This document shows, one piece after another, positions 1-40,300 of a DNA stretch of 64,000 bases. The DNA lies in assembly GCA_050273025.1 (NCBI GenBank), contig CP158635.1:20336001-20400000 (forward strand), in the 5' to 3' direction. A program made the translations under genes and the position numbers. Source of the DNA: Cenococcum geophilum (Eukaryota). The number at the start of each line of letters is the position of its first letter. Positions within the stretch are counted from its first letter, which is position 1. The notes under the pieces are model-generated. The model was not told the DNA's origin. It saw only the letters and a program-made list of their open reading frames with translations, and did not search any database.

Positions 1-3000
1 TCTATATATGCTATAAAGTATCCCCACTTTGTAAGCTTGTCTACTATTACTAAGATTACATCATAATCTTATCCGGTAATAGGGTCTTTTAATTTTAATA
101 ACTTAACAATAAAGTCCCATAATATGACCTCCTATAGTCTCTTTAGTATTTTAATAGGTTGTAGCCCTCTATATGGCTTATGCCTTATTAGTTTATTTCT
201 TTAATAATCTAGACATTCCTTTATAACCCTTCTAGCTATTCTCTAGATTCTATTAATAACGTACTCCTTTTAGAGTCTCGACACTAAGCCCGTAGCTCTA
301 TTATGTCCTTAGGTTAGTCCCTTATAGAAGTCCTTTATAAACTGCTCTGCTATGCTTTTTAGGATATACTTTATTTCTTAATTCTTGTATATATCCGTTT
401 ATAGATCTTCTAGCTATACTTCTAGAATTCTTTATACCTAAAAGCTTTCTAGTATCTCGTAGACTTTCTTTAGTTCATTATCTTCTTAAGTTGCTACGAT
501 TTTTAGATAATTATACCTAATTAATCCGTTTATATCTTTTTGTAATAAAGCCCCTAATGGCTTTTCCTTATTTTATAGTTTAGCTTTACGGCTTAGAGCA
601 TCTGCCCGCGTATTGTCTATACCTTTAGTATACTAAATCTTAAAATGGTATTCCGTAAGCATCTCTACCTATCTAACCTATCTTTAGTTAAGTTCCTTCG
701 TTATTAGGAATCCTATTAGGTTCTTATAATCTATCTTAACCACAAATAGTTTCTCTATACCTTATAAGAATGCTCTTTATTCCTTTAATGCTGCAACTAT
801 ACCTAATAACTCTTTGTTGTAGATATTATAGTTTAACTCCGGTAGTGTTATCTTCTAACTATAGTATGCCACTAGGTGCCATCTATCTTAATACCTTTAT
901 ATAAAGCACGCCTCTAGTATATAGTCTAATGTATCTATTTCTACAACCGTCTCTAGTCTTGGTTAATAGATCTTAAGAACTAGCTCCTAGGTAAATAACT
1001 CTTTAACTTTTTTAAAGAGTTCTCTTTACTCCTTCCCCTATATCTATAGTTGTTCTTTCTTTATTAACCGTGTAAATAGCTTAATATTCTTTAACTATTG
1101 CGCTATAAACCTTTTATAGTAATTGCAAAACCCTAGGAACGATCTTAACTGTATAACGTTCTCTAGTTCCTACCAATTTACTATAGCCTTAATCTTCTTT
1201 AGATCTATACTAAGTTAGCCTAGTTTAATAATAAATTTAACGAAATTGGTCTTCCTAGTAAAGAACTTATATTTCTTAATTGCTACTAGCATCTGTTCTT
1301 CTTATAGTCTCTTTAAGACCTATTTAATATGTTCCCTATATTCTTCCTTAGTTATTAAGTAGATAATAATATTATCAAGATATACTATAATAAATTTATC
1401 TAAGTGTTCTCCTAACACATTGTTAATACGCTTTTAGAACATTACTAGTGCGTTTATAAGCCTAAATTACATAACTAATAGTTTATATAGTCCTTCCTTT
1501 AACCTAAAGGCTGCCTTCTATTTATTACCTTCCTTAATCCTAATTTAATAGTACGCCCATCTTAGATCTATCTTTATAAAGATTTGCGCATTACCTATCC
1601 TGTCTTAAATTTCGCTAATTAAGGGTAAAGGATACCTATCCTTCCTAGTAATGCTGTTTAACTATTTATAGTTAATATATAGCCTTAGTTTGCCATTCTT
1701 CTTTAGTATAAATAGTACTGGATAACCCGCTAATGACTGCGATAGTCTAATATATCCCTTTTATAGATTTTTTTAGATAAACTCTTTTAATGCTTTACCC
1801 TCTTCTTTAGTAAGCTTGTAGATTAGAAAGAACTTTAGACTTATTCCTAGTTCTAACTCTATCTTATAGTCCTATACTATATATTCTAACAGCTTCTTAC
1901 TTTCTAGTAACTATAGTTTCTTACCGTACTTATGGTATCTCTTTAGTATATAACTTAGTCCTTTTTCTGTTTCTTTATAGGTTGCTCCTACTTAGTACCA
2001 TATTAACTTAGCTTATTATCGCATTTTACGGCGTTAAGTATCTCTAATATCGACTTAACCTATAATCCAATTAATCCTTAGATTGTATTCTTATAACTAA
2101 GGCATGCCTAATACTACCTTATCCCGTCCCAATGGTAGGATATTAAAAGATATCTTAATTTATCTTCCTTTAATAGTTATCTAAATAGGTCCTATTTTAA
2201 GATTGATGATCCCTCCTCCATAGGTTATTAGATCTCCTAAAATTATAACTAATAGGTAAGGTTGCTCCTTTTGTCTATAAGGTAGCCCCATTCTCTTAAC
2301 TACTACTAGTAAAATATGGTTTCGCGTTACTCCACTATCTATTAATGCTTTAAACTGCTAATCTTACCAATTAATCCGTAAATTTAGGTGTTATTCTTAA
2401 ATTCCTTTAAGGGTCTAAGGCTCTACCACTAGCTCCCTCTGGTCCTATGGGCCTCTACTTTTCCCAACTATTAGCTACTTAATTTTAGTGCACTTAGCTC
2501 GCTCTTTAGCTAATGCCTAGTTCGCTTTTTATCTTTAATATGCTATAAATACGTATTTTCTAGGCATTTCCACTACTGTTATCCGTCTAAGCATTCTTCT
2601 ATAAGGAATCTTTCTAGTTAAAGTGCTAAACTTCCTTCCTTTTAGATTTCTATTGGATGCCATCTATATATATATTTAGCATTCCTATACTATTACTTAT
2701 CCATTATCTAGTATATCCTTATAGGGTATTTCCAATTCTTTTCTTTTAGATTCTTATGTATTTTATATATATTATTTACGTACGTAATCTATAATAACAT
2801 ATAGTATACTAGGTGCTTTAGGTTAACTCTTAGCTCGTCTTTATCCTTAAGTTTAAACCTTTATTATACTAATCTAAACGTTATAACTTTATTTATAGGT
2901 ACTAAGATATGCCTCTTACTTCTCTAGTCCTCTAAACGTTCCTTTAGATCCTTTAACGTTATAATTAAGGCTTCTTTAATATATGTTATGGCCTTCTCTA

Positions 3001-11499: not shown

Positions 11500-14400
11500 T
11501 ATAGAGCACTAAAAGATAAAAACCGAAAGTACCTAGTAAGGATATATTAGTTATTAGACGAGGCGAAATATAGAAATACTAAGTATATATATAGTTGGCA
11601 CCTAGTAGAAGTATAAAGCCTAGGAGACTTAATACTTTAACTAGGGAGATTCCTTATAGAAGAATGCTTAGACGGACGATAGTAGTGGGAATACCTGGAA
11701 AATACGTGTCTATAGTATATTAAGGACAAAAAGCGAACTAAGTATTGGCTAAAGATAGACTAAGTATAGATAGGATTAAGCAGCTAGTAGTTAGGAAAAG
11801 TAAAGGCCTATAGGACTAGAGAGAACTAGTGGTAGAGCCTTAGACCCTTAAAGGAATTTAAGGACGACACCTAAATTTACGAGTTAAGTGGTAAGATTAA
11901 TAGTTTAAGGTATTAATAGATAGTGGAGTAATAAGGAACTATATCTCGCTAGTAGCAGTTAAAAAATGGGATCACTATATAGGAAAAAAGAGCACCCTTA
12001 CCTATTAGTAATAATTTTAGGAGATCTGATAGCCTACAGAGGAGGTATTATTAATCTTAAAATAGGACCTATTTAGCTAACCATTAAAGGGAGATAAATT
12101 AAGATGTCTTTTAATATATTACTATTAGGGAATAATAAGGCAGTACTAGGAATGCCTTAGTTATAGGAATACAATTTAAAGATCAATTAGGTTATAGGTT
12201 AAGTCGATATTAGGAATACTTAACGCCGCAAGATACAATAATAAGCTAAGTTAGTATGGTACTAAGTAGGAGCGACCTATAAAGAAACGGAAAAAGGACT
12301 AAGTTACGTACTAAAGAGATACTATAAGTATAGTAAGAAACTATAGTTACTAGAAAGCGAAAAGCTATTAGAATATATAGTATAGGACTATAAGATAGAA
12401 TTAGAACTAGGAATAAGTTTAAGGTTCTTTCTAATCTATAAGCTTACTAAAGAAGAAGGTAAAGCATTAAAAGAGTTTATCTAGGAAAACCTACGAAAAG
12501 AATACATTATCAGCAGGTTATCCAGTACTATTTATACCAAAGAAAAATGGTAAACTAAGGCTGTATATTGACTATAAATAGTTAAATAGTATTACTAGGA
12601 AGAATAGGTATTCTTTACCCTTAATTAGCGAAATCTAAAATAAAATAGGTAAGGCGCAAATCTTTATAAAGATAGATCTGAGATAGGCGTACTATTAGAT
12701 TAGAATTAAGGAAGGCGATAAATAGAAGGCAGCCTTTAGGTTAAAGGAAGAACTATATAAACTATTAGTTATGCAATTTAGGCTTATAAACGCACTAGCA
12801 ACGTTCCAAAAGCGTATTAATAATATATTAGAAGAATACTTGGATGAATTTGTTATGGTATATCTTAATATTATTATTATTTACTTAATAACTAAGGAAG
12901 AATACGGAGAATATGTTAAATGGGTCTTAAAGAGACTACAAAAAAAACAGATGCTAGTAGTAATTAAGAAATACGAGTTCTTTATTAAGAAGACCAATTT
13001 TATTAGATTTATTATTAAACTAGACTAACTTAATATAGATCTAAAAAAGATTAAGACTATAGTGAATTAGTAAGAACTAGAGAATGTTATATAGTTAAGA
13101 TTGTTTTTAGGGTTTTGCAATTACTGCAGACGGTTTATAGCGTAATAGTTAAAGAATATTAAACCATTTACGCGACTAATAAAGAAAGAAGAACTATGGG
13201 TATAGGGAAAGGAATAGTAAGAATTATTTAAAAAAGTTAAAGAGTTATTTACCTCGGAGCTAGTTTTTAAGATCTATTAACTAAGACTAAAGACAGTTAT
13301 AGAAATAGATATATTAGACTTTATACTAGGGGTATACTTTATATAGAAATATTAAGATAGATGGTACCTAGTAGCATATTATAGTTAAAAGATAACACTA
13401 CTAAAGTTAAACTATAACATCTATAATAAGGAGTTATTAGGTATAGTTATAGTATTAAAAAAAATAAAGAGCATTCTTATAAGGTATAGAGAAACTATTT
13501 ATAGTTAAGATAGATTATAAGAACCTAATAGGATTCCTAATAACAAAGGAACTTAACTAAAGATAGGTTAAATGGGCGGAAATACTTATAGAATACTATT
13601 TTAAGATTTAGTATACTAAGGGTATAGACAATATATAAGCAGACGCTCTAAGTTAAAAGGCTAAACTATAAAATAATAAAAAGCTATTAGGGGCTTTACT
13701 ATAAAGAGATATAGATGGGTTAATTAGATATAATTATCTAAAAATTATAGTAACCTAAGAAGAACTAGATAGAGTTTACAAGTTACCAAAAAGCTTTTGG
13801 GTATAAAGAATTCTAAAAATACAGCTAGAAGATCTATAGACGGATATATACAAAAATTAAGAAGTAAAGTATATCCTAAGAAGTATAGTAGAATAATTTA
13901 CAGAAGATTTCTATAAGGGAATAACTTAAGGATATAATAGAGCTATAGGCTTAGTGTTAAAACTCTAAAAGGAGTACATTATTAACGGAATCTAGGGCTT
14001 AGCGTAAAAAGTTATAAAAGAATATCTAAATTGCTAAAGAAATAAACTAATAAGGTATAAGCTATATAGAGGGCTATAACCTATTAAAATACTAGAGAGA
14101 CTATAGGAGGTTATATTATAGGACTTTATTATTAAGTTACTAAAGTTAAGAGATCCTATTACCAGATAAGATTATAACGCGATCTTAGTAATAGTAGATA
14201 AGCTTATAAAGTGGGGATACTTTATAGTATATATAGAAGAAATATTAGTAAAGGACGTCGCTAGAATCTATATTAAAGAAGTATTTATAAAACATAGAGT
14301 ACTAAGTAAAATTATATTAGATAGAGATTTAAGATTTATAATAGTATTCTAGGAGGTATTCTTAGTAGAATAAAGAGTTAAAGTAGCAACTTCTACCGCA

Positions 14401-17348: not shown

Positions 17349-19239
17349 TATAGGGAAATAAACAGGAGAAGCTATTCTAAAAACTTAAAGACTTATTTAC
17401 CTAAAAGCTAATCTTTAAGATCTACTAACTAGGGCTAGATATGGTTGTAAAAATAAATTTATTAAACTTTATACTAGGAGTATATTTACTATAAAAGTAT
17501 AGGGACGCTTAGCACCTAGTAATATACTATAGTTAAAAGATAATACTACTAGAGTTAAACTATAACATCTATAATAAAGAATTATTAGGTATAGTTGCAG
17601 TACTTAAAAAATAAAGAGCGTTTTTATAAGGTGTAGAGAAACTATTTATAGTTAAAATAGATTATAAGAACCTAATGGGGTTTCTAATAATAAAAGAACT
17701 TAATTATAGATAAGTTAAATAGGTAGAGATACTTACAGAATACTATTTTAAGATTTAGTATACTAAAGGAACTAAGAATATAAGGGTAAATATATTAAGT
17801 AAAAAAGCTAAACTATAAAATAATAAAAAACTATTAGGAGTAATACTACGCAGAAATAAAGACGGATTAATTAGATATAATTACCCTAAGCTAGTAGTAA
17901 CTTAAGAGGATAATAAACTAGAAAGAGTCTATAAGATACTAAAGAGCTTTTAAGTATAGAGAATTCTAAAAGCATAGCTAGAAGATCTATAGATAGATAT
18001 ATACAAAAATTAAGAAGCGAAGTATATCCTAAAGAGTATCCCTTAACCCATCGGGGTCCGTAGAGTATATGGTCTATACACAAACACCAGGACCAAGACT
18101 ACGCGTATTCTATATAAAATTCAACCATTAATTACACCACCACTATACCTTGCAATCATGCTAGACTTAATGCAGATCTTATTTAGAAGACTTAATATAA
18201 CGTTCCACCAAATAAGATAGCCAAAATATTACCTCCGAAGCCCTAGCCGCTGCCTTATTTTAAGCCTCTTTATATTAATAATTGGGACAACTATAGCTTA
18301 CCAAACTTCCCCTTAGACGTTGATCCATATAATCCTTATAAGCTATTTAGCTTATTCTTTACAGAGGATATTTTAAATAAGCTTGTAGAGTAGACGAATA
18401 AGCACGCGGAGCTCTATCCGTCGTATAAGGAAAATAAGCATACACGCCTATAGCAGCCAATATGCAAGGAGGAACTGTACGCGTACTTTAGTGTGCTTAT
18501 TTATATAGATATTACCATAGAATCGTGCATTAAGGATTACTAGAAGGATTTAGACACCCATAGAACAGAGCATATTATTAAAAAGTATATTTCAATCGTC
18601 CAATTTTAGCAGCTTAATTATTACTTTCAAGCCTTACTACCATGGCCAAAGGATAATATAACACCTAAATCTATATTTAATAGAGTTAGCGAGCTTACTA
18701 ATTATATTCGGCTTACCTATAGGAAGCTCTACACGCCTAAAACATACCTTACCGTTAATAAGACGATTTAACGCTTTATGGGTCGCGCACCTAAGATTAT
18801 TAATATTCCATCTAAACCTATACTAAAAGGCTTTAAGATATAGATTTTAGCAAACGAGGACTATATATTAGACTTTATATAGCACGCTAAAGGTAATAAG
18901 AAGGGCCTAGTTAATTTAGATAAGTCTTTTCTTAATAAAGGCTTTTTAAAGACGCAGGTGGTAGTTCTTAATTTACTCCTATAAAAAGACGCCAAAACAG
19001 ATAAGCGCCTCTACCCACCTAAACAACACATCATTTAGCTCGATAATCTATTTATAAGCGTTAAGCTTTTTATATAACTACGAGGCCTTAGTATTAGAGG
19101 TGTAGGAACTGTTTATATAACTAAAACACAGCGTAAGGAACAGGGGGACCTTAAAGGCGATATTAAGATAGCTATAACTATAAAAGAAAGGGTTAAGAAG
19201 AAGAAGGTGCCTACTAAGCAAATAAGCCAGAGGCTTATA

Positions 19240-20116
19240 CGGAGGCAGCGGGCAAAAGTTCCTGGCCCCCTTGCGCCATAAATACGCCACCAATAAGCCA
19301 CAAAACTACTTTCTTGGCGTTCCGAATTAGGAAGGAAGCTAGTATAGAAGATGGATTTTGGCTCTTTACGACGAGAGTGTAGATATATGACATTATAATA
19401 GCCACCTGGTGTGGTGGTGATATATAGGATTACTGCTTCTGCCTACTACCTCGCCTACCACCTTGTCCAGCACCTCGTCCAGCACCTCGTCTAGTACGTC
19501 GTCCAGCACCTCGTCTAGCACCTCGTCCACCACCTTACCGTGGCTTCTTTCCTTTTAATGACTTAGCCTGCTGCTGCTGTGGCTCCTGCTGCCGTTATGG
19601 CTCTTGCTTGGGCTTAATAAACATTATATTAAGTAGCTTGATTAGCAGGTGCCGTTGTGGGTTTTATCGTAGCTCTGGAGGTAGAGCTTATAGTAGTTTG
19701 GGAGGTGATTTGGGGGGTGGCTCTAGAGGCTCTTAGGGTAGTTCTTAAGATATTTTATAAGCTTCTTGTATCGCGAAGATAGTAGTAAGGGCAGCGCCAG
19801 CAGCGCTCTTAGCTGCTACTGCTAGTGTAATTTAATGCCGGAGACGCTTATTCTAATAGCGGCTTAAATATTAATATTTATACTACCGTAAATCTTTATA
19901 GTAAGGGCCTAAGCTCTTATATAAGTTACCTATTATAAACAGTAAGATATAATAAGGATTTGATGGATTTTAAAAGTTTATAGAGTATAGTATTAAGAGG
20001 AGAGCTTTGTACGCCACGACCCCGCGATGCGCGCCAAGCATCTCTTACGCCACATTAAGCCACTAAAGGCTAGCGCACACAGGGGGGGGGCCAGGAACTT
20101 TTGGCCGCTGCCTCCG
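19240..20116. mobile_element. Non-autonomous TA-flanked TIR element (877 bp), Tc1/mariner-pogo type target, nested in the piggyBac-like transposase
   Basis: About 30-bp TIR CGGAGGCAGCGG(G/C)CAAAAGTTCCTGGCCCCC. TA on both sides; removal restores in-frame QRLIDLKL. Confidence 0.88.
19445..19535. repeat. 12-bp tandem repeat (consensus CCAGCACCTCGT), about 6-7 degenerate units
   Basis: Directly visible; the minus strand encodes RGAG-like units. Confidence 0.85.
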
Positions 20117-22459
20117 TAGACCTTAAATTAACCCACGCGGCTTAAATTCTATGGGGAGAATTATATAGTAAGCTTTCCAAAAATAGCTAGGTAATAGAGT
20201 TTACTTAAAAGGACGCTAATATAGTACTTTTTATAAGTACTATTAATAACGGTAAGTTCTATAATTTAACTCTTAGGCTTAAAACCTAATAATATTATAC
20301 ATCGCTAGGTTAATAGAAGATTAAGGACCTATAAAAATAACCTACCCTTACCTCTAGCGGCGCCGGACAGACTCGGAAGGTCTTTAGTAATAAGGTATAG
20401 AAGTAGTTGCTTATTTCTACCTTCATTTTCTACTACAATCACTATATATGTAGTGTGGATATTATAAATTAATTACAACAGTATTTTATAACATAGAGGA
20501 TCTATAGGCAGACCTAGAAGCCTCTATTATACTTCCTTCTTAATATAGTAATTAGCAATTGCTTCCTTCTGTCCTCCTACCGTTCTACTAATTATCGCGA
20601 AGGCTGTTATAACGGCCATAAGCAGTTCCGAATTAACCTCCGCAACGCCTTATTTAAGCGATCTATGCACCTTTACTAAAAATGGAAGGCTCCCAAACTT
20701 AACGCCCTACCCCCGCAACGCGGTACGGACGATATTATATAGGTTCCTATATAGCTATACTAGTTAATTAAGCTGTCCAATAAGGACGTTAACTGCTCAG
20801 CCTACGTAGAGGCTAGTAGATATACTTAGGTAGAGCGACAGGGAGGAAGGAAGGCTCTATTGGATCTATCACCAAATACTACACGGAAGCCACGAGATAG
20901 TAAGGAATAAGAAAGGCGTGGGCGTGCTCCAAGGACTTGATTTGGCTGTAGTATCTACAAGATACCATTCTGCAGGAACGACGCCTGCTAGCAGCCTCAT
21001 ATTAAGCGACTAAACTCTAAAGGATAAGCCTATATAGAGATTTTGTGTAAGAATTAAGCAATATTAAAGGCTTTAAACATCTAAGCACGGCTGTCGAATC
21101 TAGTTGATCTAATTGGCTGGCGCTTATCGATAAGCTACGGACCCAAATTAACGGGTTAAGGGATAGCAGAGTATTTTGTAGAAGATTTCTATAAGGGAAT
21201 AATTTAGGGATATAATAAAGCAACAGGCTTAGTATTAAGACTTTAGGAAGAATATATTATTAATAAAATCTAGAATATCGCGAGGAAAGTAATAAAAGAG
21301 TATTTAGATTGCTAGAAAAATAAACTAATAAGGCATAAGCTATATAGAGGGCTATAACCTATTAAAATACTAGAGAGATTATAGGAGGTTATATTATAGA
21401 ACTTTATTATTAAGTTACTAAAGTTATAAAAAAAACTCTATTACTAGATAAGAGTATAATATAATCTTAGTAATAGTAGACAAGTTAACTAAATAGGGCT
21501 ACTTTATAGTATATACGGAAGAAATCTTAGTAAAAAATGTCGCTAGAATCTATATTAAAGAAGTGTTTATAAGATATAAAGTACTAAATAAGATTATATT
21601 AGATAGAGATTTAAGATTTATAGCAGTATTTTAAAAAGTATTCTTAATAGAATAAGGAGTTAAAGTAGTAACTTTTACTATATATTATCTATAGATAGAT
21701 AGATAAATAGAAAGATTAAATTAGACGCTAGAATAGTATCTAAGATATTATATTAATTATACACAGAATAATTAGGTATTGTTATTACTAGTTATATAGT
21801 TTATATATAATGCAACACTATAAAAAGAAATAGGTATATTACCATTTAAGGCAAATTATAGATATAAGCTAAGAATATTATTATTACTATAATAAGTAAA
21901 GAAAACAAGTAGTATAGCTAAAGAAAAAATAAAGATATTAATAAATCTTTATATAGACCTTATAGAGTTAGTAAAGTCAGTATAAAATAAAATAAAAAGG
22001 TATTATAACGCTAAAAGATTTAAGGGACTAGATCTTAAGGAGGGGGATAAAGTATAGCTACTATACAAAAATTTCAAAAGTTAACAACTAAGTAAGAAGT
22101 TAAACTATGTTAGACTAGGACCTTTTAAAATTATATAGAGGATTTTACTAGTTATATTTAAGTTAAACCTATTAGCTAAAATAAAGATCTACCCTATATA
22201 GTATATTGTAATACTAAAGCCAGTATATAGGAATATTAAGCTACTAATTTATAAAGTAGACATGTATAGAGGATAAGAAAAAAATTAATAGTAAGTTTTA
22301 AAAATTATTAGTTATAAGAATATTAATAATAAAATATAGTATAAGGTTAAGTAAATAGGCTATAATAAAACTACCTAGAAACTACTATAAAATTTAAAGA
22401 ATACTATAGGAAAGATATAAGAGTATTAAAAGAAAATAGGTTAGGTAATATTAAAAAGG

Positions 22460-23596: not shown

Positions 23597-26500
23597 GGAG
23601 ATCTAATAGCCTATAGAGGAGGTATTATAAATCTTAAAACAGAACCTATTTAGATAACCATTAAAGGAAGACTAATTAAGATATCTTTTAATATCCTACT
23701 ATTAGGACAAGATAAGGCAGTACTAGAAATACCTTAGTTATAGGCATATAATTTAAAGATTAATTGGGTTATAGGTTAAGTTAATATTAGAAATACTTAA
23801 TAACGTAAGAGGCGTATAGTAACTAAGTTAGAGCAATATATAAGGAAACTGAGGAAGGGTTATCTTATATACTAAAAAGATACTATAAGTATAGCAAAAA
23901 GTTATAGAGCCTAGAAAGTAAAAAGCTATTAAAGTATATAGTATAGAAATATAAAATAGAATTGGAACCAGAAATAAGTCTAAAGTTCTTTTTAATCTAT
24001 AAGCTGACTAAAGAAGAGTTAAGAGCACTTAAAGAGTTTATCTAGGAGAGCTTATAAAAGGGATATATTAGACTATTATAATTATTAGTAGGTTATCCAG
24101 TACTATTTATACCAAAGAAAAATAGAAAACTTAGGCTATATATTAACTATAGACAGTTAAACAGTATTAGCAAAATCTAAAATAGGATAAGTAATATATA
24201 AATCTTTATAAAGATAAATCTAAGATAGGTATACTATTAGATTAGGATTAAAGAGGGCAATAAATAAAAGGTAGCCTTTAGGTTAAAGGAAGGACTATAT
24301 AAACTATTAGTTATATAATTCGGACTTATAAATATACTAGCGACGTTCTAAAAGCGGATTAATAATATATTAGAAGAACACTTGAATGAATTTATTATGG
24401 TATACTTTAATATTATTATTATCTACTTAATAACTAAGGGAGAATATAGGGAACACGTTAAATGGGTTTTAAAGAGACTATAAGAAGAATAGATGTTAGT
24501 AGTAATTAAGAAATGCGAGTTCCTTATATAGAAGACTAATTTTGTTAGATTTATTATTAAACTAGGTTATATTAGTATAGACCTAAAGAAGATTAAAGCT
24601 GTAGTAAGTTAGCAAAAACTAGAGAATATAATATAGTTAAGGTTATTTTTAAGGATTTGTAACTACTATAGAAGGTTTATAATATAGTGTTTAAAAAACA
24701 TTAAATTATTTACTAGGCTTATAAAGAAAGAGGAACTATAGGTATAGAAATATAAGTAAAAGGAGTTGTTTAAGGAACTTAAGGAGTTATTTACCTAAGA
24801 GCCAATCTTTAAGATCTACTAACTAGGATTAGAAACAGTTATGGAAATAAATATATTAGACTTTACGCTAGGAGTAAACTTATTATAAAAATATAAGAAT
24901 ATATAGCACCAAGTGGTATACTATAGCCGGAAGATAATACTACTAAAACTAAACTATAATACCTATAATAAGGAGTTATTAGGTATAAGTATAGCACTTA
25001 AAAAATAGATAGTATTCTTATAAGGCATAGATAAACTATTTATAGTTAAAATAGATTATAAGAACCTAACGGAGTTCCTAATAATAAATGAACTTAATTA
25101 AAAACAAGTTAGATAGGCAGAAATGCTTATAAAATACTATTTTAAGATTTAATATACTAAAGGCACTAAAATTATAAGGGCAGACGCACTAAGTAGAAAA
25201 GCTAAACTATAGAATAATAAAAAACCATTAGGAGCAATGTTGCGAAAGGATAAGGATAAATTAATTAGATATAATTACCTAAAGATCGCCATAACCTAAG
25301 AATATAATTTGTTAGAGAGTAATTAGGCGGAAAAGATCTAAGAAGTATAGAATAAGGATTTAGACTTAGAGTAATATAAAAATTAAAAAGTAATATATAT
25401 GCTTAAGAGTATTACAAAGGAATTTATTAAGGATTTCTATTAGGGAATAATATAAGGATATAATAGAGCTATAGGGCTAATGTTAAGACTTTAGGAGGAG
25501 TATATTATTTAAGGAATTTAAAGCTTAGTAAGAGAAACTATAAGGGAATATCTAGACTGCTAAAGGAATAAACTAATAAGGCATAAGCTATATGGAGGGC
25601 TACAACCTATTAAAATACTAGAAAGACTATAGGAAGTTATATTATAGGACTTTATTATAAAGTTGCTAAAGTTAAAAGATCCTATTGCTGGATAGGAGTA
25701 TAACGTAATCCTTATACTAGTAGACAAGTTAACTAAGTAGGGCTACTTTATAGCATATATAGAAGAAATCTTAGCAGAAGATATCGCTAAAATCTATATA
25801 AAAGAAGTGTTTATAAGACACAGAGTACTAATAAAGATTTATAGTAGTATTTTAAGAAGTATTCTTAGCGGAATAAGGAGTTAGAGCAGTAACTTCTACC
25901 GCGTATTATTCGTAGATAGATAGGTAGATAAAAAGATTAAATTAAATACTAGAATAATTAGGTATTACTATTACTAGTTATATAGTTTCTATATAATACA
26001 GCACTATAGAAAGGTGTAAGGATATTACTATTTTGGGCAAATTACAGATATAAGCTTATAATATTATTATTACTATAATAAGTAAAGAAAATAAGCAGTA
26101 TAGCTAAATAAAAAATAGAGACGTTAATAAATCTTTATAAAGACCTCTATAGCATAGCCAAATTAGTATTAAAAAAGATAATAAAAAAAAGTACTATAAT
26201 GCTAAGAGATCTAAGGAACTAGATCTAAAGGAGGGGGATAAAGTATAGCTATTACATAAAAATTTTAAGAGTTAATAACTAAGTAAAAAGTTAGACTATG
26301 TTAGACTAGGACTATTTAAAATTATAGCTAAGATTTTAGAAGTTATATATAGACTTAGCTTCCTAGTAAAGATAAAGATTTACCCTATATAGTATATCGC
26401 AATGCTAGAGCCAGTATATGGAGATGCTAAGCTATTAGTTTATAAAGTAAATATATATAGAGGATAAGAAGAAGACAAATAGCAAGTTTTAAAGATTATT

Positions 26501-29808: not shown

Positions 29809-32748
29809 CTACAATCTACTCTCAAAACCACCAGCGCCCCATCTCCTCTCTCCTGGCCAACTCGCCTCAGGCCACACACACCTCAGCGCGTCCCAGATGT
29901 GGGCAACATGCACAATCTGCAATCCCTCGAGCACTTCAATGGGTATATCCCTAATATCCTTCCTATTTCCCTCTGGCAATAACACCTTCTCCACCCCAGC
30001 CCTCAACGCCCCAATGAGTTTCTCCTTGATCCCACCAACCGGCAAGACTCTCCCCCTCAGGCTCACCTCACCAGTCATAGCCAAAGTTGGCGGGACCGGC
30101 TTTCCGCTGAACAGTGAGATAAGGGCAATAGTATGCGCCAGCCCAGCGCTAGGTCCGTCTTTGGGGATTGCGCCGCTTGGGCAATGCACATGGATACTGC
30201 GATTCTTCATGATATCTTCCTCTAGCGAGTGCGTTAATGCCAGTTCGTATGCATGAGCTTTCACCCATGTCAAGGCAACCTCTACACTCTCTTTCAGCAC
30301 ATCGCCCAGCTTTCCAGTCAGCTGTACGCGACCTGACCCAGGCATATCGGCGACTTCGATGAAGAGGATGCTACCTTGCCCACCAGTGCTGTAAGCGACC
30401 AGGCCAGTAACAACGCCGGGTCGTGAGTGCTGCTCCGCGAGTTCCTCACTGAAGCGCTCAATCCCGAGGATGGTATCGAGATCGGCTAGAGATACGACCG
30501 GGTTATATGCGGTTAGTGAATTTGTGTCCTTTGCGGAAGCATATTCAACGGCTTTAGAGCGGCAGACGGAGCCTATCTCGCGCTCGAGGTTGCGCACGCC
30601 AGACTCACGGGTGTAAGCAGCTATGATCTTGTCTAGAACCTCCGGAGTGAATTGCACAAGGTCAGAGGCAAGGCCATTAGTAGTGATTTGCTTGGGGAGC
30701 AGATGTCGGGTTGCAATGTGGCGTTTTTCGAGAGTAGTGTATCCGGATAGCTGGATCATCTCCATACGGTCAAGGAGAGGAGGCGGAATTGTATCAAGAG
30801 AGTTAGCGGTGGCGATGAAAAGTACTTTGCTTAAATCAACGGGAATATTGACATAATGATCGGTGAATGTGTGATTCTGCTCCGGATCTAACACTTCCAA
30901 CATCGCAGCGCTCGGATCGCCGTGGAAGTTGCTCATGCCTAGCTTATCAATTTCATCGAGCAGGAAGACTGGGTTTGCGACGCCAACCTTTTTCAGCCCA
31001 TTAACAATGAGTCCAGGCATCGCAGCTACGTACGTTCGTCGATGTCCGCGGATTTCAGCCTCGTCTCGTACACCACCGAGAGAGATGCGGTGGAATTTGC
31101 GTCCAAGTGCAGCGGCCACAGACTTAGCGAGACTTGTTTTGCCTGTTCCCGGAGGACCTACGAGGAGGAGAATAGGGGATTTGTCAACCATACGCTTCTT
31201 CTCTAGTAGTCTTAATTCTGCTTCCCCCGGCTCTTTTGAGGTGGGTTTCTCTGCTTCATCTTCCTTTTTCTCATTTTTAGCACCAGTAGCAGCAGCGGTC
31301 AACTGCTTAATTTGCAAATCGAGGTCAGCATTCGCCGCATGTTTCAATTTTAGGACCGCCAGATATTCCAGTAATCTTTTTTTGATCTTTTCCAGCCCAT
31401 AATGATCATCATCAAGCTGTTTCTTTGCCCGTGCCAAAGTGGCAGCATCGAGACGATCCTCCGTCGTCTTACTCCACGGAATCTCTGCTAGATTTTCTAG
31501 ATAATTTCGGCAAACCTGATACTCCGCCTGCGCCGGATTCATCTTCTGGAGTCTCTGTAATTCTCTTTGCGCCACTTTATCTGCCTCGGGTGACAGTTTC
31601 GCCTCCTCCAACCTCTTTTTTAATTCGTCCAGCTCATTGACTTCTTCACCGCCCTGATTTCCTCCAGGGAAGCCCAGGAAACCTGGAGGTATACCACCGG
31701 GGAGTCCATTCGTGCCTCTCCTAAGCAGTGCCTCTTGTTGCAATTTCCTTAGACGGTCTATATCAAATGTTCCGCTTGGTGAAGTGCTTGATGATACTGT
31801 GATCCTCGTGCTTCCCTGGATCCCTTGGATCTGCCTCTGCAACACCTCAATTACTCGTTCCAATCTATCCTTTACATCTAACGCAGCCAGTATTCTCAAT
31901 TTCTCCTCGTGTGTGCAGTCAACAACATTCGCCATGAAGTCTGCCAAAGAACCTGCTTCTCCAATGTTCTTGCGCGCGATATAGAGTTCTAGCCTACGTG
32001 CGACGATGGGGGATAGTGAGACGGATGGGCTGCGGGGAAGGATGGAGGAGAGGCGAACTAGTGCAAGGAGCTCGCGAGAAAGCTGCTTTAAATGCTGGAA
32101 GAGTTCTGCAACCTCCGTATTCGAGGCATTGACTACTTTCCAACCGTTAGCTTATCATAGCCAATGCCCATTCAAATTCTCCGTTACTATAGTTTTATCC
32201 CATTATGCATTCTATCATCCTCCCATATTCCTCGAATGCTCGGGCAGATATTATAGAAGGGATCACATACCTTGATCTTCGACCACCTCAATCATCCCCT
32301 CAAAATACGGTTTCTCCTGCAGTATCTTCTCAATCCTAAACCTGCCCAGCCCCTCTACTACCAACGCTAGTTCGCCCTGCCGCCGTCCCTGCACCCCAGA
32401 CACCTTTGCCACACACCCAAACCCAAAGAGATCTTTATTCTTCGCGACGACTGGATCACTCTCATAAACTGCCTTTCCCTTGGTTCTCGCATCCCCATCT
32501 CCTTCATCCAACAGCAGTTTCCCATTTTTGCTGACCAGAGTCGAGTTTAGCGGCACGCAACCGACCGTGATGGTGGCATCTGGTTTTGCGGTCGTAGCGC
32601 GTGAGTAGATCTTGGCGAGGACGGCGGTGACATCGGCACGGTTGGTGATGGGAACACGAAGTGTGACTCCTGGGAGAAGCACAGAGGGACTGGTAAGAGG
32701 GAGGATAGGCAAGACCTTGGGTTCGGCTTTCGAGGGGGACTTGCCCAT
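29809..32748 (-). CDS. LON2: Peroxisomal Lon protease (Lon protease homolog 2), 933 aa; exons 32748-32271 and 32132-29809
   Basis: LON N-domain start (LPILPL..VLLPG), Walker [10 protein letters not shown], Walker B FLLDEIDK, catalytic PKDGPSAG and GGIKEK, PTS1 SRL. The 138-nt intron GTATGT..GCTAAC..TAG joins the two ORFs in frame. Confidence 0.96.
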
Positions 32749-33351
32749 GGTGAATTTGGGGTTCCACGGTCCAGACGCCCGACAGCTAGGAGTGTATATA
32801 GAGACAAATACAGAGGTGGAGGAATGGATACGGGTAAAAGCCGATTGACGGATACAAAGTCTGGTAGGATGAAGCGCTTAATCTGTTGATATATCTGGAA
32901 GGGATACGGAGAGCGGAAGTATCGCAATCTAGTGTATTGCATCGTCATCGCCGAGGTAATACGGCCCCTGTCTCGTGATTGGGCTTGAGCACGGAATGAT
33001 ATGGAGCAGGAAGGAGAAGCTTTTCCATGTTAAACTACATTAAACGACCGCGACATCTCTCACTAGTCTAGCAAAGGCAGACCAGGTTTAGCTCTGTGAA
33101 TCATTTATATTTCATAAGCTACAACATCAAGAATTCCTCCTACCAAATTCCTGGAGCCGTAATTCCGCTTCTCAATAAATCAACATCTCCACAAGCCTAG
33201 TGTACCCTCAGCCTCTAAATACTAACTACCCCTAAAAGCTCTATCACTATATTATCTACTAAGCTGCTACGTACCTAAAATTACAAGGCAGTATCTATTT
33301 TATAGTTCTATCTACTAGTTGTACAAAATAAGACTTTTTTTAGTAGTTATC

Positions 33352-33638
33352 GCGAACGTCCACAAAGAAAGCTGTCCGTGCAGAACACCAGGATCAGAAC
33401 AACGCGCATAGGCTGATCAAACCATGCCTTCTAATTGTACTTCCAGTGATATAGACCTTGTTCAGCCGACTCAATATAACGTTCAACCAAATCGTGTCTC
33501 AAAAAAGCCTCCCCCGGAGCCTTGGCCGTTGCTCGATTTCGAACCTCTCTACATTAGTTGTATATTCCTGAGCATGGCATTGATTTAATTGGTAAATCCT
33601 TGTCGATAACGTGTGGACGAATTTTGGCGGGTTAAGGG
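33352..33638 (+). mobile_element. Internally deleted relative of the piggyBac-like element; left TIR not recognisable
   Basis: Similar to 18055-18285 (ACACCAGGA.., AATATAACGTTC.ACCAAAT) fused to a 3' end like 21105-21162; ends GGGTTAAGGG followed by AT. Confidence 0.75.
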
Positions 33639-37300: not shown

Positions 37301-40300
37301 GCTAACAGTTAGGAAAAGTAGAGGCCTATGGGACTAGAGGGAGCTAGTAGTAGAGCCTTAGACCCTTAAAGGAATTTAAGGACGGCACCTAAATTTATAA
37401 GTTAAATGGCAAGATTAACAGTTTAAGGCATTAATAGATAGTAGAGCAATAAGGAACTATATCTTGCTAGTAGTAGTTAAAAGGATAGGATTACCTTATA
37501 GACAAAAGGAGAAACCTTACCTATTAGTTATAATTTTAGGAGATCTAATAACCTACGGAGGAGGGATTATTAATCTTAAAATAGGACCTATTTAGATAAC
37601 TATTAAAGGAAGACAAATTGAGATGTCTTTTAATATCCTACTATTAGGACGGGATAAGGTAGTATTAGGGATGCCTTAGTTACAGGAATATAATTTAAAG
37701 ATTAATTAGATTATAGGTTAAGTTAATATTAAAGATACTTAACGCCATAAGATGTAATAATAAGCTAAGTTGGTATAGTACTAAGTGGGAGCAACCTATA
37801 AGGAAACAGAAAAAGGATTAAGTTATATATTAAAGAGATACCATAAGTATAGTAAGAAACTATAGTTACCGGAAAATAAAAAGCTATTAGAGTATATAGT
37901 ATAGAACTATAAGATAGAATTAAAACTAGAAATAAGTTTAAAGTTCTTTCCAATCTATAAGCTTACTAAAGAAGAAGGTAAAGCACTAAAAGAGTTTATC
38001 TAGGAAAATCTATAAAAGGGATATATTAGACCATCGCAGTTATTAGTAGGATATCCAGTACTATTCGTACTAAAGAAAAATAGTAAACTAAGGCTGTGTA
38101 TTAATTATAGATAGTTAAACAGCATTACTAGGAAGAATAAATATCCTTTACCCTTAATTAGCGAAATCTAAGATAGAATAGGCAATACGTAAATCTTTAC
38201 GAAGATAGATCTAAGATGGGCGTACTATTAGATTAGGATTAAGGAAGGCGATAAATAAAAGGCAGCCTTTAGGTTAAAGGAAGGACTGTATAAACCATTA
38301 GTTATGCAATTTGGGCTTATAAACGCACTAGCAACGTTTTAGAAGCGTATTAATAATATATTAGGAGAACACTTAGATAAATTTATTATAGTATATCTTA
38401 ATAATATTATTATCTACTTAATAATTAAGGAAGAATACGGGGAATACGTTAAATGGGTTTTAAAGAGACTATAAGAAGAATAGATGCTAGTAGTAATTAA
38501 AAAATGCGAGTTCTTTACTAGGAAAACCGATTTCGTTAGATTTATTATTAAACTAGGCCAACTTAGCATAGATCTAAAGAAGATTAAGGCTATAGTAAAT
38601 TGGCAAAAACTAAAGAATATTACGTAGTTAAGATTGTTCTTAGGGTTTTATAATTACTATAGGAGGTTTATAGCATAGTGGTTAAAGGATATTAAGCCAT
38701 TTACGCGATTAATAAAGAAAGAAGAACTATAGGTATAGGGAGAGGAATAGAAGGAACTCTTTAAAAAAGTTAAAGAGTTATTTACCTAGGAGCCAGTTCT
38801 TAAGATCTATTAACTAGGTCTAGAGACGGTTATAAAGATAGATGTATTAGACTATGCACTAGGGGTATACTTTATATAAAAACATTAAGATGGATAGCAC
38901 CTAGTGGCATATTATAGTTAAAAGATAACACTACTAGAGTTAAACTATAACATCTACAACAAGGAGTTATTAGGTATAGTTATAGCATTAAAGGAATAGA
39001 GAGTATTCTTATAAGGTACAGAAAAACTATTTATAGTTAAGATAGATTATAAGAACCTAACAGGATTCCTAATAATAAAGGAACTTAACTAAAGATAGGT
39101 TAGATAGGCAGAGATGCTTATAGAATACTATTTTAAGATTTAGCATACTAAGGGTATAGATAATACGCGGGTAGATACTTTAAGCCGTAAAGCTAAACTT
39201 TAGAACAACGAAAAGCTATTAGGGGCTTTACTGCGAAAAGACACAGACGGATTAATTAGGTATAATTATCTAAAAATTATAGCCACTTAAGAAGATAATA
39301 AGTTAAAGAAAGTCTATAAGACACTAGAAAGCTTTTGGGTATAAAGGATTCTAAAAGCATAACTAGAAGATCTATAAATAGATATATATAAAAATTGAGA
39401 AGTAAAGTATATCCTAAGAAGTATAGCAGAGCAGTTTATAGAAGACTTCTATAAGGGACTAACTTAAGGACATAATGGAGCTATAGGCTTAGTGTTAAGA
39501 CTCTAGGAGGAGTACATTATTAACGGAATCTAGAGAATAGCTAGAAAAGTCACTAAAGAGTGTCTAAATTGCTAAAGGAATAAACTAATAAGGTATAAGC
39601 TATATAGAGGGCTATAACCTATTAAAATACTAAAGAGACCATAGGAGGTTATATCGTGGGACTTTATTATTAAGTTATTAAAGTTAAGAGATCCTATTAC
39701 CGGATAAGATTATAACGCGATTTTAGTGATAGTAGATAAGCTTATAAAGTGGGGATACTTTATAGTATATATAGAAGAAATCTTAGCGGAAGATATTACT
39801 AGAATCTATATTAAAGAAGTATTTATAAGATATAGAGTACTAAGTAAAATTATATTGGATAGAGATCTAAGATTCGTAGCAGTATTTTAGGAGGTATTCT
39901 TAGCGGAGTAAGGAGTTTAAGCAGCAACTTCTACCGCATATTATCCGCAGATAGATAGTTAAACGGAAAGACTAAATTAGATACTAGAGCAGTATCTAAG
40001 GCATTATATTAATTATATATAGAATAATTAGGTATTACTATTACTAGTTATATAGTTTGCATATAATATAACACCTTAAGAAGGAATAGGCATATTACTA
40101 TTTAAGGCGAATTATGGATATAAGCTAAGGATATTATTATTACTACGGCAAGTAAAGAAAACGAGTAGTATAGCTAAAGAAAGAATAAAGACGTTAATAA
40201 ATCTTTATATAGACCTTATAAAATTAGTAAAGAAAGTATAAGAGAGAATAAAAAAGTACTATAATGCTAAGAGATCTAAGGGACTAGATCTTAAGGAGGG

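Follow-up and report, generated by a model that had tools for sequence, protein, structure and literature searches.

A decayed piggyBac-superfamily transposon of Cenococcum geophilum with a probable TATA target and a 2-bp AT duplication

Specificity for TTAA and the accompanying 4-bp duplication serve both to define the piggyBac transposons and to find them. Superfamily reviews treat the TTAA target as general and the rare exceptions as mutated single copies (PMC5381638), a survey from 2025 accepted an element on condition that its first or last 50 bp contain TTAACC (PMC13461360), and Chen et al. (2020) tie TTAA and the 4-bp duplication structurally to seamless excision (PMC7351741). Elements with the PF13843 (DDE_Tnp_1_7) transposase are known from Pezizomycotina (PMC5751038), and one ascomycete piggyBac-like element, Ti_tr1 of Tuber indicum, is described as a 2351-bp strain-specific insertion whose terminal inverted repeats (TIRs) measure 52 bp and whose target site duplications (TSDs) are TA, its classification being left open (Belfiori et al., 2013; PMC3864998). 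Here we analyze a stretch of 64,000 nucleotides of Cenococcum geophilum (assembly GCA_050273025.1, contig CP158635.1, positions 20,336,001 to 20,400,000; henceforth the window, to which all coordinates refer), which contains, at 18040-21162, a 3123-bp piggyBac-type transposon degraded by repeat-induced point mutation (RIP). The element is a member of the piggyBac superfamily by transposase homology and is non-canonical by its insertion signature; we consider it likely that we are dealing with the defunct remains of a cut-and-paste element whose family targets TATA, duplicates AT alone and has its true ends at the outer CCC/GGG. The main interest of the locus is that a defining property of a much-used transposase family is affected.

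Boundaries of the element and its empty sites

The element sits in the pol region of a repeat whose RVT_1, RT_RNaseH and Tf2-type integrase SH3 domains identify it as a Ty3/Gypsy-type retrotransposon. Both ends can be read directly. On the left, AAAGAGTAT is followed by the TIR CCCTTAACCC (18040-18049, with TTAA as element positions 4-7) and then, at 18050-18063, by the 4-nt spacer ATCG and the subterminal repeat GGGTCCGTAG (the repeat itself at 18054-18063); on the right, the subterminal repeat CTACGGACCC (21135-21144) and the 8-nt spacer AAATTAAC, together 21135-21152, precede the TIR GGGTTAAGGG (21153-21162), beyond which lies the flank ATAGCAGAG. Terminal and subterminal inverted repeats are 10 bp each, and such CCC/GGG TIRs with asymmetrically spaced subterminal repeats are what is found in piggyBac. 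The left flank is TAT (18037-18039, comprising the target T at 18037 and the left copy of the duplicated AT at 18038-18039) and the right flank is ATA (21163-21165, comprising the right copy of AT at 21163-21164 and the target A at 21165). The exact terminal 10-mer occurs three times in the window, namely at the two ends of the element and at 33629-33638, whereas with up to one mismatch allowed there are six occurrences against 4.34 expected, which is not above chance. The reality of the feature rests on its coding content and on its arrangement, that is, both ends and the subterminal repeats with a transposase frame in between.

Did the CCC and the TTAA arrive with the element, or were they there before it? 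To recover the empty sites, 500 bp from either side of the element were compared with the 64-kb window by BLAST, and in three sibling copies of the host retrotransposon the left- and right-flank matches overlap by exactly 2 bp (13392-13886/13885-14380; 38925-39424/39423-39917; 851-352/353-5, the last on the minus strand). The shared letters are a single AT, at 13885-13886 (+), at 39423-39424 (+) and, in reverse orientation, at 352-353 (-), and the three sites read AAGAAGTAT|AGTAGAA, AAGAAGTAT|AGCAGAG and AAAAAGCAT|AGCAGAG; the window reads AGTATAGCAGAG at 39420-39431. In a fourth sibling, near 25412, the site has diverged too far to be of use. Contigs of three public sequencing runs agree with the siblings: at least three contigs of run X1, at least two of X5 and at least two of X10 carry the joint 18037->21163, in which 2 letters are ambiguous, and the other end joints among those listed (18033, 18036, 18039) involve 4, 1, 3 or 8 replaced letters; in all the end joints listed the net loss is 3125 bp, that is, 3123 + 2. 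A further copy in run X5 matches through GGG plus ATA (to 21165) and then departs from the reference.

CCC, TTAA and GGG are all missing from the site in the siblings and in the run contigs; the TTAA and the outer CCC/GGG are therefore inserted DNA, and AT alone is duplicated. The boundaries, the TAT/ATA flanks and the net gain of 2 bp are observed directly, and they differ from the TTAA target with a 4-bp duplication that characterizes piggyBac, as the empty sites lack TTAA. An earlier examination of the letters of this stretch, made without database searches (hereinafter, the sequence-only reading), had claimed precisely this combination, AT|element|AT ends with CCC outside the TTAA and an empty site at 39420-39431 devoid of TTAA and of CCC/GGG, and it is fully upheld by the three siblings and the run contigs. 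These data also bear on the possibility that the host already contained ATCCC-TTAA-GGGAT and that a canonical piggyBac, duplicating TTAA, inserted there, in which case the outer CCC/GGG would be host DNA. This explanation derives its appeal from TTAACCC...GGGTTAA, which is an exact canonical junction and which mining for TTAACC in the first or last 50 bp (PMC13461360) would score as canonical, yet it is contradicted by the empty sites and, as described below, by the ends of other copies, and we regard it as highly improbable. In the window, a search with up to two mismatches for a site or footprint of the ATCCCTTAAGGGAT type gave a single match at chance level, and CCCTTAAGGG was found in one of the 48 loci discussed below, a locus unrelated to the family; both samples are too small to count as evidence.

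A similar comparison of filled and empty sites is afforded by a second insertion that is not part of the piggyBac-like element proper. A nested non-autonomous element of 877 bp, CGGAGG...CCTCCG (19240-20116; ends CGGAGGCAGCGG...CCGCTGCCTCCG; TIRs of about 31-33 bp), sits inside the transposase open reading frame (ORF) and is flanked by a TA duplication (19238-19239 and 20117-20118). A metagenomic copy of the family, L033, lacks it and shows the empty site CTTAT|AGAG, and run contigs lack it as well (joints 19235->20118). By the same logic, then, the nested element yields a clean TA, and the method separates TA from AT. This matters for the proposal that the large element itself made a Tc1/mariner-style TA duplication, its TIRs starting T...A, as in TA|TCCC...GGGA|TA. 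The flanks do read TA...TA, and the piggyBac-like Ti_tr1 is reported with TA TSDs (PMC3864998), but an empty site AGTAGC would then be predicted, whereas what the three siblings and the run contigs show is AGTATAGC or an equally long variant, with TATA and not a single TA. Moreover, the transposase belongs to DDE_Tnp_1_7 and not to Tc1/mariner, with its DD34E/D enzymes, and this proposal appears to us exceedingly improbable. A duplication of 3 or 4 bp was considered as well and rejected: TAT and ATA are inverted and not direct repeats, and there is no outer direct repeat in L020, L027 and L035, the three complete short copies introduced in the next section.

The site in the host retrotransposon recurs at 13886, 18039/21163 and 25412, head to tail on the plus strand and 4.15-4.25 kb apart, with further copies at 39424 (+) and 352 (-). 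From this periodicity, short or deleted retrotransposon units standing in tandem seem more likely than dispersed copies.

Other copies of the family

Additional copies were identified by scanning metagenome contigs with the pattern TTAACCC-N(4-8)-GGGTCCGTAG, in which the three outer bases and the flank were left free. The pattern matched 48 loci, 11 of which are members of the family and 37 unrelated chance matches; the same DNA pattern in genome contigs returned 30 bacterial chance matches that served as a control. The family members are mostly deletion derivatives resembling MITEs (miniature transposable elements with inverted repeats), about 270-300 bp long, and two of them, L033 and L039, represent the ends of longer copies. 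Among 23 flanks, from these loci and the window together, no pair shows similarity at an E-value of 1e-4 or better; being mutually unrelated, the flanks attest to independent insertions.

Together, the 11 loci and two window elements provide 19 readable ends. The outer triplet is CCC or its RIP-type variant CTC in 16 of the 19 ends, the terminal 10-mer or RIP-type variants of it are likewise present in 16 of 19, and every end with an outer CCC/CTC (16/16) is preceded by TAT, the letter at position -4 being mixed (C in seven ends, T in six, A in two and G in one). Upstream of the pattern in the unrelated matches, CCC was encountered in 0 of 67 cases. The spacers of 4 nt (left) and 8 nt (right) are kept at every metagenome copy end seen, so that the bipartite TIR with unequal spacers noticed in the sequence-only reading is a feature of all the copies seen. 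The recurrence of the outer triplet together with TAT at 16 ends in unrelated flanks is hard to reconcile with a host origin of the CCC. All three complete MITEs of about 300 bp (L020, L027 and L035) read T-AT|CCC...GGG|AT-A. In addition, at L010 (L010:1-700) a MITE of the family lies inside another copy of the family, at a TATA in the 5' untranslated part, and GGG|ATATAAAATTC, the junction on its right, corresponds to TTCTATATAAAATTC, which the window copy has uninterrupted, giving T-AT-A again.

Taken together, these ends make TATA (consensus about Y-T-AT-A-R) the probable insertion site of the family, with a duplication of the central AT. The altered target specificity suggested at the outset is thereby supported and becomes narrower: judging by all 16 intact ends, the target would be the palindrome T-AT-A and not just any AT. 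It had also been asked whether the bases outside TTAA vary among other copies; they are CCC or CTC in 16 of the 19 ends, and the remaining three deviate. As for abundance, the family is multicopy: in run X1 as many as about 50 distinct contigs cover a given position. The 31-mers of the element are present, in small shares, in metagenome runs of roots and soil and in one run of a differently labelled organism, and contigs of run X8 include near-identical pieces, for example one of 152 nt with 0 differences; with pieces of the element in further runs, the family is not limited to one strain.

The second of the two window elements (33340-33638, plus strand, the left boundary being approximate) is a MITE-like derivative of a diverged sister family, about 300 bp long and internally deleted, with 69% identity to element positions 135-238. 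Its right end, GGGTTAAGGG at 33629-33638, is followed by ATAG (to 33642), in agreement with the sequence-only reading, which had singled out this relative for having the same right end and then AT, and its flanks are unrelated to those of the other copies. The internal TTAACCC, which reproduces the canonical junction of flank and end, is kept in both diverged families of the window. This relative is not RIP-like (GC 0.45, TpA/ApT 0.82), and with respect to a Lon protease gene (29809-32877, minus strand) it lies a few hundred base pairs upstream of the 5' end, likely in the promoter region.

The transposase and its omega loop

The transposase pseudogene spans 18145-21027 (+), with RIP-type stops throughout and the nested element interrupting it. 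Translated with stops as X, the plus-strand frame from 18106 matches Pfam DDE_Tnp_1_7 with an E-value of 9.4e-22 (a score of 78.2 bits, the cutoff being 22.4), whereas the other two plus-strand frames have no Pfam match, and no Tc1/mariner domain is found in any plus-strand frame. A protein search with residues 48-375 retrieved 24 proteins at E <= 1e-5, mostly of about 620 amino acids, and PF13843 is present in all 24; the closest is 41% identical across 91% of the 328 queried residues. The frame is collinear over its full length with these PF13843 proteins of about 620 residues, from the start codon to a C-terminal Cys/His cluster. In 23 intact relatives, D202, D292 and D446, aligned to the D268 region of the T. 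ni (IFP2) enzyme, are invariant, which is the DDD triad of piggyBac; C554, C557, C598, C601, C606, C611 and H615 are invariant in the alignment of the relatives too, and in the window frame no family model of a C-terminal cysteine-rich domain matched, PF13843 being the one family listed. This homology is a direct observation, and it confirms the piggyBac-like identity that had been proposed from the letters alone.

The gene itself is ruined. The start codon at 18145 is ATA in the window copy and ATG in the metagenomic copy L033; the stop codon of the ORF is at 21025-21027, and dozens of in-frame TAA/TAG stops precede it. The first catalytic D is changed to N, a RIP-type change, and the E that follows it to K, with the other two D retained. 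The indices of the element (TpA/ApT 1.5-1.6; (CpA+TpG)/(ApC+GpT) 0.6-0.7) have values typical of RIP; in the neighbouring Lon protease gene, given for comparison, they are 0.67 and 1.41. Given the RIP-type stops, the loss of the first catalytic D and the element nested in the ORF, the window copy is unable to move by itself and is an inert, RIP-mutated relic.

What the intact relatives offer is a view of the target pocket. In the T. ni piggyBac, R275, Y283 and K290 of the omega loop contact the TTAA hairpin and the target (PMC7351741). When one intact relative, P0004, was compared with the structure 6x67 using phmmer (E 3.9e-13), M209, N217 and P224 were found at these positions, at which piggyBat retains R, Y and K; across the 23 relatives the residues are M (22) or L (1), N (22) or T (1) and P (22) or S (1). 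A HMMER search returned 9026 proteins at E <= 1e-3 and 316 at E <= 1e-30. Among the best 150 representatives, 92 had the motif frame and were scored, the other 58 being fragments or falling outside the regular expression; Y occupies the Y283 position in 0 of the 92, R the R275 position in one, and R, Y and K occur together in none. Thus, the residues at the positions that hold TTAA are observed to be altered, and this change is consistent with an altered target pocket, although the relationship is a correlation. Scans of genome and viral contigs with alignment-based protein patterns gave 25 and 14 matches, respectively, with 0 confirmed relatives in either set.

A probable TATA target and its place among known systems

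Several of these observations can be accommodated in a simple scheme. A DDD transposase would bind bipartite ends, made of the 10-bp terminal repeat and, across a spacer of 4 nt (left) or 8 nt (right), GGGTCCGTAG, and would cleave at the outer CCC/GGG boundary of CCCTTAACCC...GGGTTAAGGG; the two 3' ends would then be joined to target strands at positions offset by 2 bp, and not by 4 bp, at the centre of TATA. It is in this sense that we infer the shifted cleavage geometry that the sequence-only reading had postulated, the stagger being deduced from the junctions. Since AT is self-complementary, like TTAA, the logic of complementary overhangs that underlies seamless excision could survive the change, and excision might have remained seamless. 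The internal TTAA could be either a fossil of the ancestral TTAA or a recognition element.

The principal competitor of the 2-bp duplication is an insertion without any TSD, in which T-CCCTTAACCC...GGGTTAAGGG-A (or an element carrying AT at one end) entered blunt between TA and TA. This would fit all the sequences equally well, with the empty site GTATAG, the filled site GTA|T...A|TAG and flanks that are always TAT/ATA, and eukaryotic cut-and-paste elements that lack TSDs do exist, Spy being a case in point (PMC4122938). However, strand transfer by DDE/DDD enzymes is normally staggered, and the piggyBac relatives of known chemistry use an offset (PMC7351741); there is also no sequence evidence that would favour blunt insertion over the 2-bp duplication. 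Given that enzymes of this class join staggered positions, we rate blunt insertion lower and consider it unlikely.

A TATA target with an AT duplication, which we continue to prefer, has to be weighed against a number of observations that count against it. To begin with, the AT duplication and the blunt T-CCC...GGG-A insertion are indistinguishable from sequence. Then, according to Chen et al., a 4-bp offset is dictated by where the active sites lie in the T. ni dimer (PMC7351741), so a 2-bp offset would require a changed architecture. The full comparison of filled and empty sites comes from one insertion alone, that of the window copy; L010 offers a single junction, its left one being lost to a deletion of about 20 bp and to the contig end, and the left terminal 10 bp of the second relative in the window are degraded beyond recognition, which leaves one readable end there. 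Three ends are atypical and unexplained. Two belong to L029 (L029:390-657), where the triplets CGC and GCC stand next to the flanks GATA and TTCA, respectively; the third is the right end of L043 (L043:3998-4264), where the triplet is GCC and the flank GTT. The omega-loop difference is judged against two canonical enzymes alone and amounts to a correlation. Finally, the ESM Atlas clusters nearest to P0004 are PF13843 proteins whose few labelled members are mostly from Arthropoda; this proximity is feature-based and unaligned, and nothing is drawn from it.

With regard to the atypical ends, the odd triplets of L029 and L043 still match CCC at two of three positions, and so they look like altered ends and not like random host DNA. 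Cross-mobilisation at the inner TTAA was considered for L029 and rejected as a general answer, given that the triplets are two-thirds like CCC/GGG and that L043 has one normal end.

A broader generalization suggests itself, namely that a large clade (316 or more clusters, defined at 50% identity, lie within an E-value of 1e-30 of P0004) swapped TTAA with a 4-bp duplication for TATA with a 2-bp duplication, possibly remaining footprint-free, and kept the old TTAA|CCC in the TIR as a fossil or a recognition element. We put this forward tentatively, as a conjecture on which we would not rely at present. Should it be correct, surveys that demand TTAA beside CCC would have scored such elements as canonical and would have missed the change. 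In practical terms, the TTAACC filter of the 2025 survey (PMC13461360) would accept the family described here and record the wrong TSD, which is a warning for annotation. If a natural TATA/2-bp lineage that retains the enzyme family and the CCC/GGG ends does exist, it would show that the coupling between target and excision can be re-tuned, would single out the omega loop as the site of the re-tuning and might provide a second tool for footprint-free insertion, aimed at another target.

How, then, does the family compare with the known systems? With canonical piggyBac (T. ni IFP2; PDB 6X67/6X68) and piggyBat it has in common the DDE_Tnp_1_7 transposase, with three aspartates that are invariant in the relatives (which also possess a C-terminal Cys/His cluster, a putative counterpart of the cysteine-rich domain), as well as ends that start with CCC and finish with GGG and a palindromic target with self-complementary duplicated bases. 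The unequal spacers are another shared trait, 4/8 nt here and 3/31 bp in T. ni (PMC5381638). The differences are in the target, TTAA with a 4-bp duplication in the canonical system versus TATA with a 2-bp AT here, where TTAA is found inside the TIR at positions 4-7, and in the omega loop, R275/Y283/K290 versus M/N/P in the relatives of the window transposase. In Paramecium, the piggyBac-derived enzyme PiggyMac excises internal eliminated sequences at a conserved 2-bp dinucleotide and not at TTAA; the dinucleotide is TA, and it lies at the centre of a 4-nt overhang. Unlike the window family, PiggyMac is a domesticated excisase that is not known to perform integration.

The closest parallel is Ti_tr1, like the window element an ascomycete transposon with a pfam13843 transposase and a 2-bp duplication other than TTAA (PMC3864998). 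The dinucleotide found here differs from the printed TA: by its published description, on which alone the comparison is made, Ti_tr1 combines TA with 52-bp TIRs, as opposed to AT within TATA and a 10-bp terminal plus a subterminal repeat in the present family. The TA of Ti_tr1 and the AT within TATA may or may not be the same geometry read differently. In the full-text literature, the scope of our search, which did not extend to Repbase or Dfam, this was the sole report of a non-TTAA fungal piggyBac that we found. The family represented in the window is thus a variant within the piggyBac superfamily with one partial precedent in print, Ti_tr1.

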